Below are positions 42,083-63,215 of a stretch of 64,000 bases of DNA, one piece after another (within the stretch, counting starts at the first letter, position 1; every line of letters starts with the position of its first letter). A program made the translations under genes and the position numbers. Under the pieces are notes generated by a model. That model ran no database searches and had not been told where the DNA came from. It saw only the letters and a list, made by a program, of their open reading frames with translations. The stretch comes from an uncultured Planctomycetota bacterium (GTDB lineage: Bacteria > Planctomycetota > Planctomycetia > Isosphaerales > Isosphaeraceae). The stretch spans positions 401,457 to 465,456 of the forward strand of contig CAWJTV010000039.1 of the NCBI GenBank assembly GCA_963845755.1, written 5' to 3'.

Positions 42083-42298
42083 AGCCCCAGCGGGGCGATC
42101 GGCCGTAGCCAGGGGCGTGAGCCCCTGGACGATCGACCGCGTCCCCTCGCTTGTCCTTCGAGCCCCGGAGGGGCGACAGAAGTCCTCAGAGCCACAGGGT
42201 TTCTGTCGCCCATCCGGGGCTTACCAGAACGAAGGAACTCCCCGCGTCCAGGGGCTCACGCCCCTGGCTACGTGCTTTCGCCCCCATCCGGGGGGCTC
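42083..42298. repeat. REP-like palindrome cluster
   Basis: agccccagcggggcga, agccaggggcgtgagcccctgg and inverted ccaggggctcacgcccctggct, tcgccccatccgggg. Confidence 0.75.
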
Positions 42299-42529: not shown

Positions 42530-43326
42530 AGGCGTTTCGCCTTCTTGAGGATACCGTCAGGGCGGCGGGCGCCGCGACGGAACGTCTGCAACGGCGTCCT
42601 GGCGAAAGGGTGTCGTCGTTCGATCCTGGCCCGAAGGTCGAGCGATCGATCGCGGGCGGGGAACCGGCATGGCCACTCGAGTTCGCGATCGGGGCCGGGG
42701 TATTCCTCGGCCAGGGGGGATGGCAGATTGAGCCGACCGCATCCCTGTCTGATGTCGCGATCGTGCGGACGACGGCGATCCGAGCCTTCGATGGTTCAAT
42801 TCACGATCGAGGCAGAAGGGTCACCGGGTCCTTCTGACCCTTACCGTCGCGGACCACGAGGTGGTTCTGTCCGAGATCGACATCCTCAATCCGGAGGTGG
42901 CGGGACTCCATCAGCCTCCGCCCGGAGTTGTCCAACCGACTGGCCCTGAGTCGTTCATCGCCATCAAGCCGGGCCAGAAGCGCGCGGACCCCGGCGCGCA
43001 TCGCGACGACGGCGAGACACTCTGGCCGCCTCGCCCTGGAGGCGTCGATGCGACCTTGCAAGAGGTGATCGTGGACGGACTGGTCGAGCAAGACCCAGGC
43101 ACTCAACGCCTGGTTCTGCGTCGAGGCCGCGTCATTCTCCTCGACCGCCAGGTGAGTCAGGAACGCTTCCCGTTCGCGTTCGCCAATACGAGGAAATGCC
43201 GCCTACCTGGACGAGGATGAACCGCGAGACCCATGGAACGTGGGGATCCTCGGTGCGAATGCTGGAATGCTACGTCCAAATGACGGATCGCACCTGATCG
43301 AGCTGCTTTGGCGATCGATCCGTGAT
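42530..43326 (-). pseudogene. intI: Decayed, 3'-truncated integron integrase
   Basis: PKQLDQVR, AFLTHLAVEENDAASTQNQALSA, HLRIEDVDLGQNHLVVRDGKGQKDPVTLLP and the IntI-specific insertion LAEEYPGPDRELEW.CRFPA...ERRH; internal stops and frameshifts; HxxR and catalytic Tyr missing. Confidence 0.9.
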
Positions 43327-43773: not shown

Positions 43774-43871
43774 ACAGCGGCGTGCCACCGTCTAACGAGG
43801 CGATGCAGCGGACCCGCCTGTCGGCGGGCCTCTGATCTATGGCGTTAGCCGTCGTTCGAGGAGCAGTGGGC

Positions 43872-44303
43872 ATGGCTTCTGAAGTCGAGGAGGTCATGGC
43901 GGAACCCGAGTACTTCTTTCGCTTCGGTGCCACGCTCCGGATCTTTGGGGACATCGGAGACTTGGAGGCGATCACAGCCGAACTTGGTATCGTGCCAACT
44001 CATGCGCATCGGAGGGACGAGAAGCTTCTGCCGACCTCTCCCAGGGGCTACGAGCATGACATGTGGTCCTACTCCGCTCCGGTACCCCGGGGTCGTCCGC
44101 TGCAAGTCCATCTGGAATCGCTCTGGCTCGCCGTTCGGCCGCACGTCGCCTATCTGAAAGGCTTGAAGGAGCGCCTGTCCGTCAACGTGTATTGCAGCTA
44201 CCATACGAATTGCAGCACCGGAGGCTTCGAGGTTGATCACCGAGCCCTGATCATCTTCGCCGAGCTTGAGGTGCCGTTCGGCGTGTCCGTCGGCATAGCG
44301 TGA
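43872..44303 (+). CDS. Cassette: DUF4279-like protein, copy 1
   Basis: ATLRIFG...ITAELGIVPT...WSYS...HLESL. Confidence 0.75.
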   Translation: MASEVEEVMAEPEYFFRFGATLRIFGDIGDLEAITAELGIVPTHAHRRDEKLLPTSPRGYEHDMWSYSAPVPRGRPLQVHLESLWLAVRPHVAYLKGLKERLSVNVYCSYHTNCSTGGFEVDHRALIIFAELEVPFGVSVGIA

Positions 44304-44653: not shown

Positions 44654-44755
44654 CTTTGTCTAACAATGCGATGCAGCGGACCCGCTGTGCGGGCCGCTGA
44701 TCTTGGGCGTTAGGCCGCAGAAGGCATACGACTCGTTGAGGCATCAGCACCCGAT

Positions 44756-45346: not shown

Positions 45347-45419
45347 AGCTATAATCATGGCCTTCTATGAACACGCTGAGGTCAAGGCCCCCGACTAATT
45401 TTTTCTCGGCGCACCTGCG

Positions 45420-45790
45420 GGCGCGGACAGCGATCGCTCCGAGTCCGACAGCGTGTGTCCTGGCTCCCCGTTTGCGGGGAGCCAGGACGCACGCTGTTTC
45501 TCGTTCTCCAGACAACGCCGGTGGTCCTGCGATCGACACTCTCCTTGTCCTTGCCGAAGAACTCCCGAGACCGCGGCTGGTGGCTTCGTCACGCGCGTCG
45601 CGCCTTCCAGGAGGCCGCGACCACCTTCTCTCCGTGTCGATCCTCACTCAAGGGACCGAGCACCCGTTACTGTGTTCGTCCGCGGACGACTCCGAAGCCA
45701 GGTGTGGGGACAAACCCATCTAACAAACGGTCGGCTGCCGCCAACCAGACGTGCTCGCCCGGTCGCCCCCTCCAGCCCGGTACGCTCGTG
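45420..45790 (-). ncRNA. Candidate bridge/seek RNA in the 3' non-coding end of the IS110 (boundaries approximate; copy 2 about 57860-58230)
   Basis: Nested stems (gatcgacac/gtgtcgatc, gaccgagcac/gtgctcgcccggtc, ggtgg/ccacc, agcc/ggct) with loops matching target and donor; long terminal hairpin at 45448-45497. Confidence 0.65.
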
Positions 45791-45855
45791 ATTCTTCCCT
45801 CAAGGCCCCTGGTTTCATTTTAGTAATAATGTTATTACATGAACAAATTCAGTGG

Positions 45856-47042
45856 TCATTCGACCTTTGCTGATGCAGGCAGTCGGCCGTTGAGCTTCTT
45901 CTCCCACGGCGTGAATTCCGCCCCCTCGGGCACCTCGCCCTGCTCCAGGTATCGCCAGAGCGCGATCAACAACTTGCGAGCCAGTGCCACGATCCCCACC
46001 TTCCGCGCCCGCGCGTTGCCCTCGCCGAACCGACGCTGATACCACTGGCTCAAGGCGCTATTGGGCTGCCAGTGCAGCCAGCCCCAGGCGATCTCCACCG
46101 CCATCCACCGCAGACGGCGATTGCCCGCCTTGCTGATCCCTTGCTCACGACGGCTGTCGCCGCTGTCGTACGGCGTCGGCGCGAACCCGGCCAGGCTCGC
46201 CAGCTCGCGGCGATTCTTGATCGCTCGCCAGCCGAAGAACTCGCGGACGAACAGCGTCGCGCTCATCGGGCCGATCGCCTTGAGGTTGAGCAAGAGCCGC
46301 AGCTTCTCGACGTCGGCCGTCGCGTCGTCGCGGAACGCACGCCTCTGGGCGTTCTCCAGGTCGCGCGCCTGGCGGTCCACCAAAGTCCAGCGGTCGAACT
46401 CGCGGAGGATGCGGGCACTCAGCTCGGCCGGGACCGGCCTCCCATCCCATTGGCGAAGTTGGCCGAGGCGTTCCGGCAACTGGTCATCGACCTCGACATC
46501 GAGGCCGAGGTTGGCGAGCAGGCCTTTTATGCGATTGGAGTGCTCGGTGCGCTGACCCTTGACGGCGATCAGCTCGCGGTGGGGCTGACGGCGATCTTCG
46601 TCGTCGGGCGTGGGGATGCGGACGACGCTCCAGAGCTTGTGCTCGCCGCCGTGATAGCGGATCAACATCGTCAGGAGCTTGCCGACATCGAGACGATCGC
46701 TCTTGGCGCGACGCGCGCGGCGGTTGACCTCGATGCTGGCGGCGTCGACGACCAGGTTCGTGACGGCGTGGTGTTGGAGATAGCGATGGAGCCAGAAGCC
46801 GTCGCGGCCGGCCTCGTAGCAGGAGAGCACGGGGGCGTCACCGGGGAGGGCGAACCGGTGCCTGGCGAGAGGATCTCGCGCTGAAGGGCGTCGAGATCGC
46901 GAGCGGCGATGGTGCGGAGCCGCGGCTTCTGGGCCATGGCGGTGGTGAAGGCGAGGTTCCAGGAGGTCCAGCCGAGTTCGAACGCGAGGTAGAGCGTGTT
47001 CGAGCCGGTGGTGATAGGATGAAGGTCGTGGGTCGCTGACAT
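45856..47042 (-). CDS. IS110 transposase/recombinase (indel near 46865)
   Basis: YLAFELG, SCYEAG, AKSDRLD (RuvC DEDD-type, first D replaced by E), PYDSGDS, ISKAGN, ALARKL. Confidence 0.95.
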
Positions 47043-47272
47043 GGTGAGACTCCGTGGTTGAGAGGGATTTGGTGAAAGACCTCTTCTGAGGAGCTTACCG
47101 TCAGCGGCTCACAGTTTTCTGCCCGGTCGCTCCGGACATAGTATCTAACAATGCGATGCAGCGGACCCGCTGCGCGGGCCGCTGATCTTGGTCGTTAGGC
47201 AGAGGCAGAGGACCTCACCGGCGGCGGTGCGGGAAGTTCCGATTTGCCCTGGCTGGCGGGAGGACGAGCCCA

Positions 47273-49615: not shown

Positions 49616-49705
49616 TCGGGGCGCGAGCTAACCCAGCGTTGCAGCGGACCCGCCTGCGGCGGGCCGCTGAACTTTTCGTTAGCCGTCGTTCGAGGAGCAG
49701 TGGGC

Positions 49706-50137
49706 ATGGCTTCTGAAGTCGAGGAGGTCATGGCGGAACCCGAGTACTTCTTTCGCTTCGGTGCCACGCTCCGGATCTTTGGGGACATCGGAGACTTGGA
49801 GGCGATCACAGCCGAACTTGGTATCGTGCCAACTCATGCGCATCGGAGGGACGAGAAGCTTCTGCCGACCTCTCCCAGGGGCTACGAGCATGACATGTGG
49901 TCCTACTCCGCTCCGGTACCCCGGGGTCGTCCGCTGCAAGTCCATCTGGAATCGCTCTGGCTCGCCGTTCGGCCGCACGTCGCCTATCTGAAAGGCTTGA
50001 AGGAGCGCCTGTCCGTCAACGTGTATTGCAGCTACCATACGAATTGCAGCACCGGAGGCTTCGAGGTTGATCACCGAGCCCTGATCATCTTCGCCGAGCT
50101 TGAGGTGCCGTTCGGCGTGTCCGTCGGCATAGCGTGA
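49706..50137 (+). CDS. Cassette: DUF4279-like protein, copy 2
   Basis: Identical translation to 43872-44303. Confidence 0.75.
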   Translation: MASEVEEVMAEPEYFFRFGATLRIFGDIGDLEAITAELGIVPTHAHRRDEKLLPTSPRGYEHDMWSYSAPVPRGRPLQVHLESLWLAVRPHVAYLKGLKERLSVNVYCSYHTNCSTGGFEVDHRALIIFAELEVPFGVSVGIA

Positions 50138-52703: not shown

Positions 52704-53423
52704 GTGGACGAGGTCATCATCCTATATCGCCCGGTCGGTCCGAAGGAGCTTGCGCTCATCGAGGCATCCGGTTGGACAGCCTTCCCACCGCGCTTACCCG
52801 AACAGCCGATCTTCTACCCTGTGCTCAACGAAGAATACGCCGCCTGGATCTCGCGGAGATGGAACGTGAGGGATTACGGGTCGGGCTTCGTCACGAGGTT
52901 CGCGGTCCGATCAGAGTTCGCGAGGCGTTATGTCGTACAGCGCGTCGGGGCCGGCCATGCCGAAGAACTTTGGGTACCCGCCGAAGAGTTGGCGGAATTC
53001 AATCGGAATATTGGACACTCCTCGCTCATCACCACCTCGGTTCGAGACTGTTCCCTACGCCGAAGGCGTTAGACAGCACAGCCCAGGGTCGCCGCAAGGC
53101 GCACCCTGGGAAGCGATCCGCCCTCAGAACACCTGTACCCCAACGGGGTTCCACAACCGAGTCCGCCCCATCGTCCTCAGGGTGCGCCTGCGGCGACCCT
53201 GGGCTGTGTTGTGTAACGCCTTCGGCGTAAGGACACGATGGTGGATAGTCTCCCCGCGATTCCCAGGGTGCGCCTGCGGCGACCCTGGGCTGTGTTGTGT
53301 AACGCCTTCGGCGTAAGGATCGCAACCCAATCCCACGGGTGGCTCCAGGAACCCGGTGGCGTTCGGCGAGGAGTGTCGAATATTGTGGGCTGCATCGAGG
53401 TCATCGCCGAGTTCCATACCTAA
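52704..53423 (+). pseudogene. Cassette: 'ADP-ribosylation/crystallin J1'-type small protein interrupted by a MITE
   Basis: LYRPVGPKEL...FPPRLPEQPIFYPVLNEEYA; C-terminus VGCIEVIAEFHT* resumes after 53385. Confidence 0.75.
53014..53377. mobile_element. 364 bp non-autonomous element (MITE) with 12 bp TIR and 8 bp TSD, containing REP-like hairpins
   Basis: GACACTCCTCGC...GCGAGGAGTGTC flanked by GAATATTG at 53006-53013 and 53378-53385. Confidence 0.9.
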
Positions 53424-57044: not shown

Positions 57045-57839
57045 ATGTCCACTGCCGATGAAGCGCTGCTGGCTGCATTCGACGGGCACCACGTCGAGGG
57101 CGTCCGCGCCGCGCTGGATGCGGGAGCTGACCCGAGTTCCCCGATTCGAGGCAAGCCGCCCATCTATTGGCTGCTCGAAGAGTACATGCGATCCGATCGA
57201 CTCCCGGCTTGCCTCCGTTTACTGTTTGAGCGCGGGGCCGCGCTCGACGACCCGGCCGTCGTGCCCGTACTGCTGAATGATCCGGAAACGATCAGGGCTG
57301 CTGTCAGGGCAACCCCGTCACTCCTCGAGCACCGTACCACCCTGACCTCATCGTTTACGTCGCTGGTCGGTGTATCCCTGCTCCACGTGGCCGCCGAATA
57401 CGGGCACTTGGATGCCGCACGCGCCCTGGTCGAAGCCGGTGTCGATGTGAACGCGACGGCCGCCGTCGATGAGGATGGCCTCAACGGGCACACCCCGCTG
57501 TTCCACGTGGTGAACTCGCTCGGGAACCGGTCCGAGCCGATCATGCGCTTGCTTCTGGCCGCCGGCGCCAAGCCAGACGTGCGTCTGACCGGAATCTCGT
57601 GGGGGAAGGGGTACCCTTGGGAGACGACGTTCTTCGACGTCACGCCCATCTCGTACGCCCAGATGGGGCTCCTTCCACAGGTACACAGGAGCGAGCGAGA
57701 GATCTACGCAAATATTAGACTTCTGTTGGAAACCGCGGGCCGGAAAGTGCCGTCCCTGGCCAATGTTCCCAATCGCTACCTGCAACCTAAGTCAAAGATC
57801 TTCTTCTATGAACACGCTGAGGTCAAGGCCCCCGACTAA
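57045..57839 (+). CDS. Cassette: ankyrin-repeat protein; original stop removed by the IS110 insertion
   Basis: SLLHVAAEYGHLDAARALVEAGVDVNA, GHTPLFH. Confidence 0.85.
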   Translation: MSTADEALLAAFDGHHVEGVRAALDAGADPSSPIRGKPPIYWLLEEYMRSDRLPACLRLLFERGAALDDPAVVPVLLNDPETIRAAVRATPSLLEHRTTLTSSFTSLVGVSLLHVAAEYGHLDAARALVEAGVDVNATAAVDEDGLNGHTPLFHVVNSLGNRSEPIMRLLLAAGAKPDVRLTGISWGKGYPWETTFFDVTPISYAQMGLLPQVHRSEREIYANIRLLLETAGRKVPSLANVPNRYLQPKSKIFFYEHAEVKAPD

Positions 57840-59584
57840 TTTTTTCTGGGCGCCCTGCGGGGCGCGGACAGCGATCGCTCCGAGTCCGACAGCGTGTGTC
57901 CTGGCTCCCCGTTTGCGGGGAGCCAGGACACACGCTGTTTCTCGTTCTCCAGACAACGCCGGTGGTCCTGCGATCGACACTCTCCTTGTCCTTGCCGAAG
58001 AACTCCCGAGACCGCGGCTGGTGGCTTCGTCACGCGCGTTGCGCCTTCCAGGAGGCCGCGACCACCTTCTCTCCGTGTCGATCCTCACTCAAGGGACCGA
58101 GCACCCGTTACTGTGTTCGTCCGCGGACGACTCCGAAGCCAGGTGTGGGGACAAACCCATCTAACAAACGGTCGGCTGCCGCCAACCAGACGTGCTCGCC
58201 CGGTCGCCCCCTCCAGCCCGGTACGCTCGTGATTCTTCCCTCAAGGCCCCTGGTTTCATTTTAGTAATAATGTTATTACATGAACAAATTCAGTGGTCAT
58301 TCGACCTTTGCTGATGCAGGCAGTCGGCCGTTGAGCTTCTTCTCCCACGGCGTGAATTCCGCCCCCTCGGGCACCTCGCCCTGCTCCAGGTATCGCCAGA
58401 GCGCGATCAACAACTTGCGAGCCAGTGCCACGATCCCCACCTTGCGCCTGCGCGTTGCCCTCGCCGAACCGACGCTGATACCACTGGCTCAAGGCGCTAT
58501 TGGGCTGCCAGTGCAGCCAGCCCCAGGCGATCTCCACCGCCATCCACCGCAGACGGCGATTGCCCGCCTTGCTGATCCCTTGCTCACGACGGCTGTCGCC
58601 GCTGTCGTACGGCGTCGGCGCCAACCCGGCCAGGCTCGCCAGCTCGCGGCGATTCTTGATCGCTCGCCAGCCGAAGAACTCGCGGACGAACAGCGTCGCG
58701 CTCATCGGGCCGATCGCCTTGAGGTTGAGCAAGAGCCGCAGCTTCTCGACGTCGGCCGTCGCGTCGTCGCGGAACGCACGCCTCTGGGCGTTCTCCAGGT
58801 CGTGCGCCTGGCGGTCCACCAAAGTCCAGCGGTCGAACTCGCGGAGGATGCGGGCACTCAGCTCGGCCGGGACCGGCCTCCCATCCCATTGGCGAAGTTG
58901 GCCGAGGCGTTCCGGCAACTGGTCATCGACCTCGACATCGAGGCCGAGGTTGGCGAGCAGGCCTTTTATGCGATTGGAGTGCTCGGTGCGCTGACCCTTG
59001 ACGGCGATCAGCTCGCGGTGGGGCTGACGGCGATCTTCGTCGTCGGGCGTGGGGATGCGGACGACGCTCCAGAGCTTGTGCTCGCCGCCGTGATAGCGGA
59101 TCAACATCGTCAGGAGCTTGCCGACATCGAGACGATCGCTCTTGGCGCGACGCGCGCGGCGGTTGACCTCGATGCTGGCGGCGTTAACGACCAGGTTCGT
59201 GACGGCGTGGTGTTGGAGATAGCGATGGAGCCAGAAGCCGTCGCGGCCGGCCTCGTAGCAGGAGAGCACGGGGGCGTCACCGGGGAGGGCGAACCGGTGC
59301 CTGGCGCAGAGGATCTCGCGCTGAAGGGCGTCGAGATCGCGAGCGGCGATGGTGCGGAGCCGCGGCTTCTGGGCCATGGCGGTGGTGAAGGCGAGGTTCC
59401 AGGAGGTCCAGCCGAGTTCGAACGCGAGGTAGAGCGTGTTCGAGCCGGTGGTGATAGGATGAAGGTCGTGGGTCGCTGACATGGTGAGACTCCGTGGTTG
59501 AGAGGGATTTGGTGAAAGACCTCTTCTGAGGAGCTTACCGTCAGCGGCTCACAGTTTTCTGCCCGGTCGCTCCGGACATAGTAT
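57805..59584 (-). mobile_element. IS110-family element, copy 2, inserted at the attC R'' CT core (CT at 57803-57804 and 59585-59586)
   Basis: Same ends as copy 1; removal restores TTCTAAC and the upstream stop codon. Confidence 0.92.
58296..59482 (-). CDS. IS110 transposase/recombinase (indel near 58445)
   Basis: Same motifs as copy 1. Confidence 0.95.
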
Positions 59585-59668
59585 CTAACGAGGCGATGCA
59601 GCGGACCCGCCTGACAGCGGGCCGCTGATCTGGGTCTTTAGGCGGTATTCCGATTGCACGGGGGCGAC

Positions 59669-62216: not shown

Positions 62217-62576
62217 ATGGACGACATCCCTGACAGCTCCAACTTCTTCGCCTCGCTGCATACTTCGCTCTCCCGGCGGCGAGTCGCCGGGCTCTTCGCG
62301 CGGCTGGGCTGGAGCGTCCGTAAGTGTAGCTGGACGGACTACGAGATCCGGAGCCCGTTCGCCGAATTGGTCATCGAGGCGGAGTCACTGATCCTCATGC
62401 ATGGCCCGGTGGCCGAAGTGGAGATCAACGCCAACCGAATCCTTGTCCCCCTCAGGCATGCCGGGGTACGCTACGCTGCGGAATGCTACAGTGCGGGCAA
62501 TGACCTCCTCCAGGAGTTCCGCTGGGGGACCGTCTCACACGGCGATGCAGCGGACCCGCCTGCGGCGGGCCGCTGA
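62217..62576 (+). CDS. Cassette: hypothetical protein; reads through a mutated attC R''
   Basis: GTCTCAC in place of GTCTAAC removes an in-frame TAA. Confidence 0.65.
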   Translation: MDDIPDSSNFFASLHTSLSRRRVAGLFARLGWSVRKCSWTDYEIRSPFAELVIEAESLILMHGPVAEVEINANRILVPLRHAGVRYAAECYSAGNDLLQEFRWGTVSHGDAADPPAAGR

Positions 62577-62617
62577 TCTTTAGCGTTAGGCCAAGGAAAG
62601 AATGAGGTCCAGCGGCG

Positions 62618-62860: not shown

Positions 62861-62871
62861 GTCGGGCGCCT

Positions 62872-63215
62872 TCTATGAACCCGCTGAAGCCAAGCCCCCG
62901 ACTGATTTTTCCCGGGCGCCCCGCGGGGGCAGACCGCGATCTACAGCGAGTGTCCTGGCTCCCCGCAAACGGGGAGCCAGGACACTCGCCGCTTCTCGTT
63001 CTCCAGACAACGCCGGTGGTCCTGCGATCGACACACTCCTTGCCCTTGCCGACGGACTCCCAAGACCGCGGCTGGTGGCTTCGTCACGCGCGTCGCGCCT
63101 GCCAGGAGGCCGCGACCACCTTCTCTCCGTGTCGATCCCCACTCAAGGGACCGAGCACTCGTTACTCTGTTCGTCCGCGGACGACTCCGAAGCCAGGGGT
63201 GGAGGCAAACCCATC
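62872..63215 (-). mobile_element. Truncated, diverged IS110 3' end (non-coding part only) at a presumed attC R'' (GC-CT)
   Basis: Homologous to 45364-45720; preceded by gcgc-CT. Confidence 0.8.

Follow-up and report, generated by a model that had tools for sequence, protein, structure and literature searches.

Insertion sequences (ISs) of the IS1111 group that are guided by RNA to attC, the recombination site of integron gene cassettes, are known from Pseudomonas and from clinical class 1 integrons, and their insertion is thought to cripple the site. Whether elements of this kind have found attC more than once, and at what cost to the site, is the question raised by a 64,000-nt stretch of DNA from an uncultured Planctomycetota bacterium of the family Isosphaeraceae. 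This stretch, called here the window, forms the terminal part of contig C39 (CAWJTV010000039.1) in an assembly of 14.27 Mb and 49 contigs (GCA_963845755.1), and its cassette array carries an IS whose copies all lie inside the R'' box of an attC site. An earlier interpretation made from the letters alone (the sequence-only reading) had described an IS110 recombinase of a planctomycete lineage that targets the R'' core and rebuilds the site. We find that the element very probably stands for a deep and so far unnamed branch within the IS1111 group (IS110 family), with a predicted two-loop bridge/seek RNA encoded 3' of the transposase gene.

Insertion position of the copies in the window

The integron cassette array occupies the window from ~43790 to its end; 26 attC sites (R'' RYYYAAC ... 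R' GTTRRRY) were listed from repeat families of 60-76 nt between 43790 and 62593 on the forward (+) strand. Direct reading of the sequence and blastn reveal three copies of one repeat in this array, all with the transposase sense on the reverse (-) strand, antisense to the cassettes. Copy 1 (45364-47144, 1781 nt) is flanked by CT dinucleotides at 45362-45363 and 47145-47146, copy 2 (57805-59584, 1780 nt) by CT at 57803-57804 and 59585-59586, and copy 3 (62872-63215), a 344-nt right-end fragment 88% identical to copy 2, has CT at 62870-62871. The junctions read ..ATCATGGC-CT|TCTATGAAC ... GGACATAGTAT|CT-AACAATGCG.. for copy 1, ..AAGATCTT-CT|TCTATG ... AGTAT|CT-AACGAGGCG.. for copy 2 and ..GGGCGC-CT|TCTATG.. 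for copy 3. Every copy thus begins with TCTATGAAC behind a flank ending in YCT, and the two complete copies finish with GGACATAGTAT, followed by CTAAC and the remainder of an attC site. The sequence-only reading had placed the element at 45362-47149, a span that holds it together with the flanking CT and CTAAC, and had counted three copies at the same CT; the shared CT stands, with the qualification that one of the three is a fragment and the other two are frameshifted.

Removal of the IS and one CT gives, for copies 1 and 2, the products that had been described. For copy 1 the result is GCCTAAC, complementary to the R' GTTAGGC that opens its cassette (attC 44658-44733). For copy 2 it is ATC TTC TAA C, by which an ankyrin-repeat cassette open reading frame (ORF; 57045-57839, (+); Pfam Ank, 2.2e-11) regains a TAA stop codon that once overlapped R'' (TTC TAA C); at present this ORF extends into the IS for ~11 extra codons. 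For copy 3 it is GCGCCT.., in a cassette beginning at the GTTAGGC of attC 62530-62595. The downstream junction of copies 1 and 2 is ATCTAAC, so that the claim of a new R''-like box behind the IS holds at the level of sequence. The attC behind copy 1 (47143-47200, (+)) begins with this ATCTAAC, its AT being IS-derived, and ends with R' GTTAGGC at 47194-47200; the one behind copy 2 (59583-59643, (+)) reads ATCTAACGAGG...TCTTTAGGC.

The transposase gene of copy 1 (45856-47042, (-)) has a 1-nt deletion near 46867 (~codon 59), which leaves open pieces at 46671-47042 and 45856-46830 with a match to Pfam Transposase_20. In the ORF of copy 2 (58256-59482, (-)), two nucleotides are missing at 58443, which alters the last ~60 residues and removes a conserved C-terminal helix. 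With these frameshifts the copies in the window are dead. One long contig from each of two soil-metagenome runs has GC at the place of this deletion, so frame-intact versions exist in soil populations.

Insertion sites across the genome

By blastn the IS is found at eight places in the genome: three in the window, two on contig C18, two on C47 and one on C5. Both C18 copies have a 167-nt internal deletion, and one of them is also cut at its left end; the C5 place is a 335-nt left-end fragment. A genome-wide search with an nhmmer model of the window's attC sites gave 100 matches, including 8 on C3, 15 on C18, 8 on C34, 31 on C39, 23 on C41 and 9 on C47. All eight IS places lie inside attC arrays or beside an attC match, which answers the check for copies outside attC that the sequence-only reading had proposed. 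The left-end junction is kept at six places, where it reads ..AGTAT|CTAAC (five) or |CTCAC (one) with an attC next in every case, and the right-end junction is kept at seven, all preceded by YCT. Because all eight places are at attC with the same junction rule, chance is excluded as the cause of the shared position.

The transposase and its family

Scanning one genome for each species gave 76 loci (collected loci carry the prefix L) with proteins 47-87% identical to that of the window, under titles that name Planctomycetota, Chloroflexota, Acidobacteriota, Armatimonadota, Gemmatimonadota, Rokubacteria and others. The only Pfam match of the window ORFs is Transposase_20 (3e-16); DEDD_Tnp_IS110 does not match them and stays below its cut-off in the intact relative L013 (22.1 vs 29 bits). 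With the NCBIfam model NF033542 (IS110 family RNA-guided transposase), the intact relatives L001 and L013 reach 166.2 and 187.7 bits against a cut-off of 140; the match begins only at residue 53-59. An AlphaFold model of the L013 protein (predicted local distance difference test score, pLDDT, 83) retrieves ISCro4 (9T56) and IS621 (8WT6/8WT9) at the top of a Foldseek search, with an E-value of 1.7e-12 over ~365 columns and template-modelling (TM) scores of 0.57/0.65, and phmmer with the intact L013 ORF gives matches to the C-terminal domain of the same two recombinases. With hhalign, a profile made from 29 intact relatives was paired with the transposases of the ISPst6 type at 98% probability and 26% identity, and the E/E/D/D/S of the clade are placed on D7/E51/D88/D91/Ser of these enzymes. 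The transposase combines RuvC-like and Tnp domains in this fold, with an E-E-D-D tetrad and a conserved Ser.

The first acidic position is Glu in 71 and Asp in 8 of 79 matched stretches, while the other four positions, Ser included, are invariant (79/79). The replacement of the first RuvC Asp by Glu, which the sequence-only reading had attributed to the element, accordingly holds across the clade and only in part in this genome, whose full copies have three Glu and three Asp.

The non-coding part measures 492 nt past the stop codon vs ~102 nt before the start. A long 3' non-coding end with a short left end is the arrangement of the IS1111 group, for which subterminal inverted repeats of 7-17 bp are also given as a defining feature (PMC11208160, in excerpt). 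The repeat here is, as had been noted, CTATG/CATAG, 5 bp long; it reaches 9 bp in some relatives, e.g. L044 and L062 (CTATGAAGG/CCTTCATAG). Pfam, NF033542, the fold and the 3' RNA region agree on an IS110-family element of IS1111 type.

A predicted RNA whose guides covary with the insertion flanks

The 3' region of copy 1 contains the core of a predicted bridge/seek RNA (45597-45776, (-)), supported by covariation of its guides with the flanks. Its candidate guides are the right target guide (RTG) ACGTCT, complement of 45747-45752; the left target guide (LTG) TTTGTTAG, complement of 45720-45727; a stretch like a right donor guide (RDG), CAGTAAC, complement of 45666-45672; and the left donor guide (LDG) GAGAGAAG, complement of 45625-45632. 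In transposase sense the target loop of the window copies has RTG ACGUCU and LTG UUUGUUAG, which together spell ACGT-CT-AACAAA on the cassette strand, the attC R'' box of this genome plus three bases. With G-U pairs allowed, CTAACGAG, the most frequent form in the window array, is a fit for the LTG as well. The donor loop has a left-end guide (AGUA.) and a guide for the right end plus core (GAGAAG). A second guide version, GCGCCU with GUGAGUUAG, is present in the C18 copies; one C47 copy (C47b) combines the LTG of the C18 copies with an RTG region that is the window version minus one base.

The same organization is seen in relatives with differing targets. There a 3' motif, CCG-[5-9 nt]-AG-AUGGG, holds a copy of the left-flank sequence as read in the direction of the transposase gene (GGTTAG, TTATTCAG, GGGTCAG, CCGTTAG and ACTGTCAG are examples), and a stretch 25-45 nt upstream of the motif is complementary to the core and right flank, with up to 9-10 nt matched. 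Guide-flank pairing was scored in the 32 of 38 loci having both flanks and the motif, with 1000 re-pairings among the loci as control. The mean contiguous match of the LTG past the core was 3.4 nt vs 1.07 nt in the re-paired sets (maximum 1.75), and that of the RTG, core included, 4.2 nt vs 2.2 nt (maximum 3.4). On the donor side, AUAGAAG (right end and core) follows the motif by ~85 nt in 31 of the 38 loci, and a G-N-A-U before the preceding hairpin tracks the left end (GUAU/ATAC, GGAU/ATCC, GCAU/ATGC; by eye on the alignment). RNAalifold with 24 sequences gives three hairpins, with compensatory changes in 11 of 22 pairs. The guides thus covary with the flanks, in agreement with the RNA-guided targeting that had been proposed, and the predicted RNA would have the four-guide, two-loop layout (LTG/RTG and LDG/RDG) reported for bridge RNAs (PMC11208160, in excerpt). 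In the seekRNA layout the top-strand match lies 5' of the bottom-strand match (PMC11187229, in excerpt), and the order is the same here.

Targets of the relatives

The ends of the element are conserved among relatives as AG|AT.CTATG and CATAGA|AG, with AGAT at the left end imposed by the search pattern, and AGATAATATG was seen by eye at six further loci. Targets vary among the sub-lineages: GGGGTCAG|GAACC, TTATTCAG|GCGTC, CTGAG|TAGTTAC and others. Seventeen insertions finish with GTTAG, in most cases with GC next, which is GC|CT|AAC on the opposite strand. A covariance model built from the attC sites of the window and run on the loci of relatives matches immediately next to the left end of two L001 copies and of L005, and more weakly beside L062. 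By folding, L013 (Anaerolineaceae), L026 (Pyrinomonadaceae), L052 (Anaerolineales) and L062 (Armatimonadota) each have a predicted attC-like hairpin, 73-126 nt long, whose R'' and R' ends pair; for the first three, where the covariance model has no match, the hairpin comes from folding only. At L002, L004 and L016, all inserted at ..GTTAG|GC.., no attC-like hairpin was found by folding.

Since the R''-targeting relatives come from several phyla, targeting of R'' is a feature of some members of a broad clade. The assignment to a planctomycete lineage has to be given up, as the metagenome-assembled genomes with R''-targeting relatives belong to Anaerolineaceae, Anaerolineales, Pyrinomonadaceae and Armatimonadota.

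Among the relatives, L008 (63% identity; L008:746-1877) lies directly after three attC sites, yet it is inserted in another repeat, GGGGTCAG|GAACC, and its guides match this target repeat.

Comparison with elements known to use attC and with bridge recombinases

Loci of the ISPst6/ISKpn4 type were gathered with a 25-nt right-end motif from the supplement of PMC11187229 (in excerpt), and the insertion position of this known group was read from the 60 loci obtained, 59 of them informative. In 59 of 59 the right end CATAT[A/G] is followed by 4-6 nt and then by GTTAG, GTTAT or TTTAG; the whole R'' complement is on the cassette side, and the left end of full copies abuts the attC remainder. The known group therefore severs the whole R'' from the stem, whereas the present element cuts inside R'' (RYCT^AAC), ~nine bases away, and the claim that its insertion position is unlike that of the described IS1111-attC group is borne out. 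The gathered loci (L080-L138) are mostly right-end remnants, with few full-length elements of ~1.44 kb.

Could the element nevertheless be an ordinary member of the IS1111-attC group (ISPst6, ISPa21, ISKpn4, ISPa25) with the same target position? The two share the attC target, site and orientation specificity, a 3' guide RNA, a left end that adjoins the attC body and a transposase gene antisense to the cassettes, the last reported for IS1111-attC elements in PMC3001079 (in excerpt). Truncated pieces are also common to both, here as the fragments C5, C18b and C39c and in the IS1111-attC group as many 'footprints', which were reportedly described by Tetu and Holmes in 2008. Against membership stands, besides the cut point, a transposase identity of only 23% (BLASTP, 159 aa; L080 and others) or 26% (profile), when in the supplement of PMC11187229 (in excerpt) the ISPst6 row is 76-89% identical to the next eight columns (ISKpn4, ISPa21, ISAzvi12 and others). 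The guides differ as well. A seekRNA has been demonstrated for ISKpn4/ISPst6 (PMC11187229, in excerpt), and the 3' region of these elements holds AUAACAAU, antisense to TTGTTA (by eye); it is the left target guide that recognizes the CTAACAA bases here, and the opposite, right arm there. From first to last the acidic tetrad is EEDD here vs DEDD in the IS1111-attC group, and the hosts are environmental phyla here vs Pseudomonas and Enterobacteria there. Ordinary membership is, in our estimation, extremely improbable. With moderate confidence we conclude instead that two branches, set apart by identity, guides and cut point, have converged in programming their guides on attC. Of two matches examined from a tblastn search of a plasmid collection with the window protein, one adjoins merR of a mercury-resistance operon and the other is unrelated to integrons, and the search was set aside as a route to ISKpn4.

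The likeness to the bridge recombinases IS621 and ISCro4 (PMC11208160, PMC11208158; PDB 8WT6, 8WT9, 9T56) extends to the whole-length fold and, as predicted here, to a two-loop RNA with LTG/RTG and LDG/RDG including the core dinucleotide and to a circle junction promoter. The differences are the position of the RNA, 5' of the gene there and 3' here, the change of the first catalytic Asp to Glu here and an identity of ~20%. The sequence-only reading had compared the core with the CT core of IS621; CT is indeed found on the cassette strand, but on the transposase-sense strand the core is AG, and the likeness is loose. Group IIC-attC introns also home to attC, at its 5' end and with an orientation opposite to that of the cassettes (PMC3001079, in excerpt), and are retroelements with a ribozyme, unrelated in sequence and mechanism. 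Among the papers examined from full-text searches, whose coverage leaves out most subscription journals, no IS110-family lineage inserting inside R'' was found. Compared with the known attC-targeting elements, the branch, the cut point and the first catalytic residue differ; the mechanism and the use of attC as a landing pad are shared.

Proposed mechanism

The right end of copy 1 has a -35-like TTGACC (45380-45385, (-)). TTGAC is present in the right ends of 37 of 37 relatives, 17-18 nt from a GATNCT formed by the core together with the left end. A promoter composed of TTGACC, 17 nt and GATACT would thus be formed only when the ends are joined in a circle, and a junction promoter has been reported for other IS1111 members (PMC11187229, in excerpt).

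We propose that the element excises as a circle whose joined ends form this promoter. An RNA would be produced from the 3' region and would pair its target loop with the attC R'' and its donor loop with the IS ends. The complex of recombinase and RNA would then exchange strands between circle and target at the AG/CT core, leaving CT on both sides. Since the cut lies after the fourth base of R'', CTAAC remains joined to the attC remainder, and the left end of the IS (AT...) supplies the first two R'' positions. The IS accordingly has a cassette ORF on one side and an almost complete attC on the other, with its orientation opposite to that of the cassettes.

Contrary evidence and alternative explanations

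Several observations weigh against a mobile element guided in this way. Neither a circle junction nor an empty site was found in the contigs of four soil-metagenome runs, contigs being a weak test. An Rfam scan of 42000-64000 (E<=1) returned no bridge-RNA family, and its MIR160 matches on the IS hairpin are at chance level. The loci of the covariation test are akin and share guides and targets, and the shuffle control overstates their independence; in the present sub-lineage, the LDG and the right end that it should match differ at one position. Relative to the intact 395-aa ORF of L001, every full copy in the genome (six of six) is frameshifted; the indels lie outside long homopolymers, and assembly error may still account for them. 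In one copy (C47:4797-6579) the shift comes only past the last conserved helix, and this copy may, judging from its reading frame, still be active. Since the copies are 88-99% alike and each full copy has a frameshift, the family in this genome looks old and decaying. Specificity poses a further difficulty: actual sites pair with the RTG by the core and 1-2 bases only, and the motif [AG][CT]CTAAC[AG]A[AGT] has 78 occurrences genome-wide, 38 inside attC matches and 40 outside, so the guides alone do not account for eight of eight copies at attC.

RNA pairing may therefore be one part of the specificity, with the hairpin or single-stranded form of attC as a second layer or with selection removing insertions made elsewhere. 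This would fit the few bases over which the guides match real sites and the occurrence of the 10-nt motif, in about every second case, outside attC, and a target stem-loop has been reported as a second specificity determinant of the IS110 element ISPpu10 (10.64898/2026.03.19.712850, in excerpt). The insertions of L002, L004 and L016, without an attC-like hairpin found by folding, indicate that a hairpin is not required in the clade, and we regard a second layer or selection as possible but rather doubtful.

Another explanation leaves the recombinase out and lets the integron integrase spread the copies as cassette cargo. The attC behind each IS is whole but for two bases, and the genome has one intact integrase gene (C3:161245-162186, 485 bits), the sole integrase above the family cut-off. 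A cassette duplicate that is 100% identical over at least 300 nt (43843-44142 and 49677-49976, same array) hints at a recent cassette duplication or re-insertion. The array next to the C3 integrase is IS-free, however, and the IS-bearing arrays adjoin intI fragments only: a remnant in two pieces with one in-frame TGA upstream of the window array (42538-43202, (-); C39:443994-444658) and N-terminal fragments on C18 (C18:75908-76096) and C47 (C47:23641-23829). The cassette upstream differs for each IS copy, and no unit of cassette and IS was found in two places in this genome. Moreover, the IS borders lie in R'' and not at the point where the integrase crosses over, the G|TT of R'. Spread by the integrase is thus very unlikely, and we retain movement by the element's own RNA-guided recombinase as the explanation of the copies.

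Fate of the interrupted attC

The attC left behind an insertion begins with ATCTAAC, which fits RYYYAAC, and otherwise resembles its uninterrupted neighbours (47143 vs 44658). In the uninterrupted sites of the window (22 parsed, a few of them with R' mis-parsed), both of the outer two R'' bases are complementary to R' in 3, one in 13 and none in 6, and swapping them should therefore cost little pairing. The AT of the left end is also present in relatives with non-attC targets. The 'rebuilding' of the site, put forward by the sequence-only reading, is thus better seen as a by-product of an ancestral IS end than as an adaptation.

Because CTAAC, the complete stem and R' are not separated by a cut inside R'', the integrase might still be able to use the attC behind the IS as a substrate, the IS becoming cassette cargo that moves both by its own RNA-guided recombination and with the integron; with an origin independent of the ISPst6 group, attC would then be a safe harbour repeatedly 'discovered' by bridge-RNA elements in different phyla. 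We hold this extension to be unlikely. How IS1111 insertions affect integrons is described as a question with limited experimental evidence (PMC11616780, in excerpt).

Other features of the window

Copy 3 ends inside the DNA encoding the left target guide (63215/63216). A self-targeting event was considered for this break; the junction is unlike an IS110-type junction. The sequence that follows up to the contig end (63216-64000) has one 97% copy on contig C6 (L139:1626-3419), with a 598-aa ORF without a Pfam match, and two further 55-nt matches elsewhere. Between the integrase remnant and the array, Rfam Acido-Lenti-1 scores above its gathering threshold at 42083-42128 (-) and 42248-42297 (+). 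A third match, below the gathering score, lies inside the array at 53262-53315 (+) and coincides with direct and inverted repeats of 45-56 nt (53052-53319).

Implications

A branch distant from the known attC-targeting elements, and spread over several environmental phyla, reaches attC by way of the opposite guide arm and leaves the site nearly whole. The two branches would represent convergent guide programming on a conserved recombination site of the host, and a comparison of the two offers a natural way to ask how cassette mobility depends on where in attC an IS lies. For the enzymology of bridge recombinases, the Glu that prevails across the clade at the first catalytic position is of some small interest.

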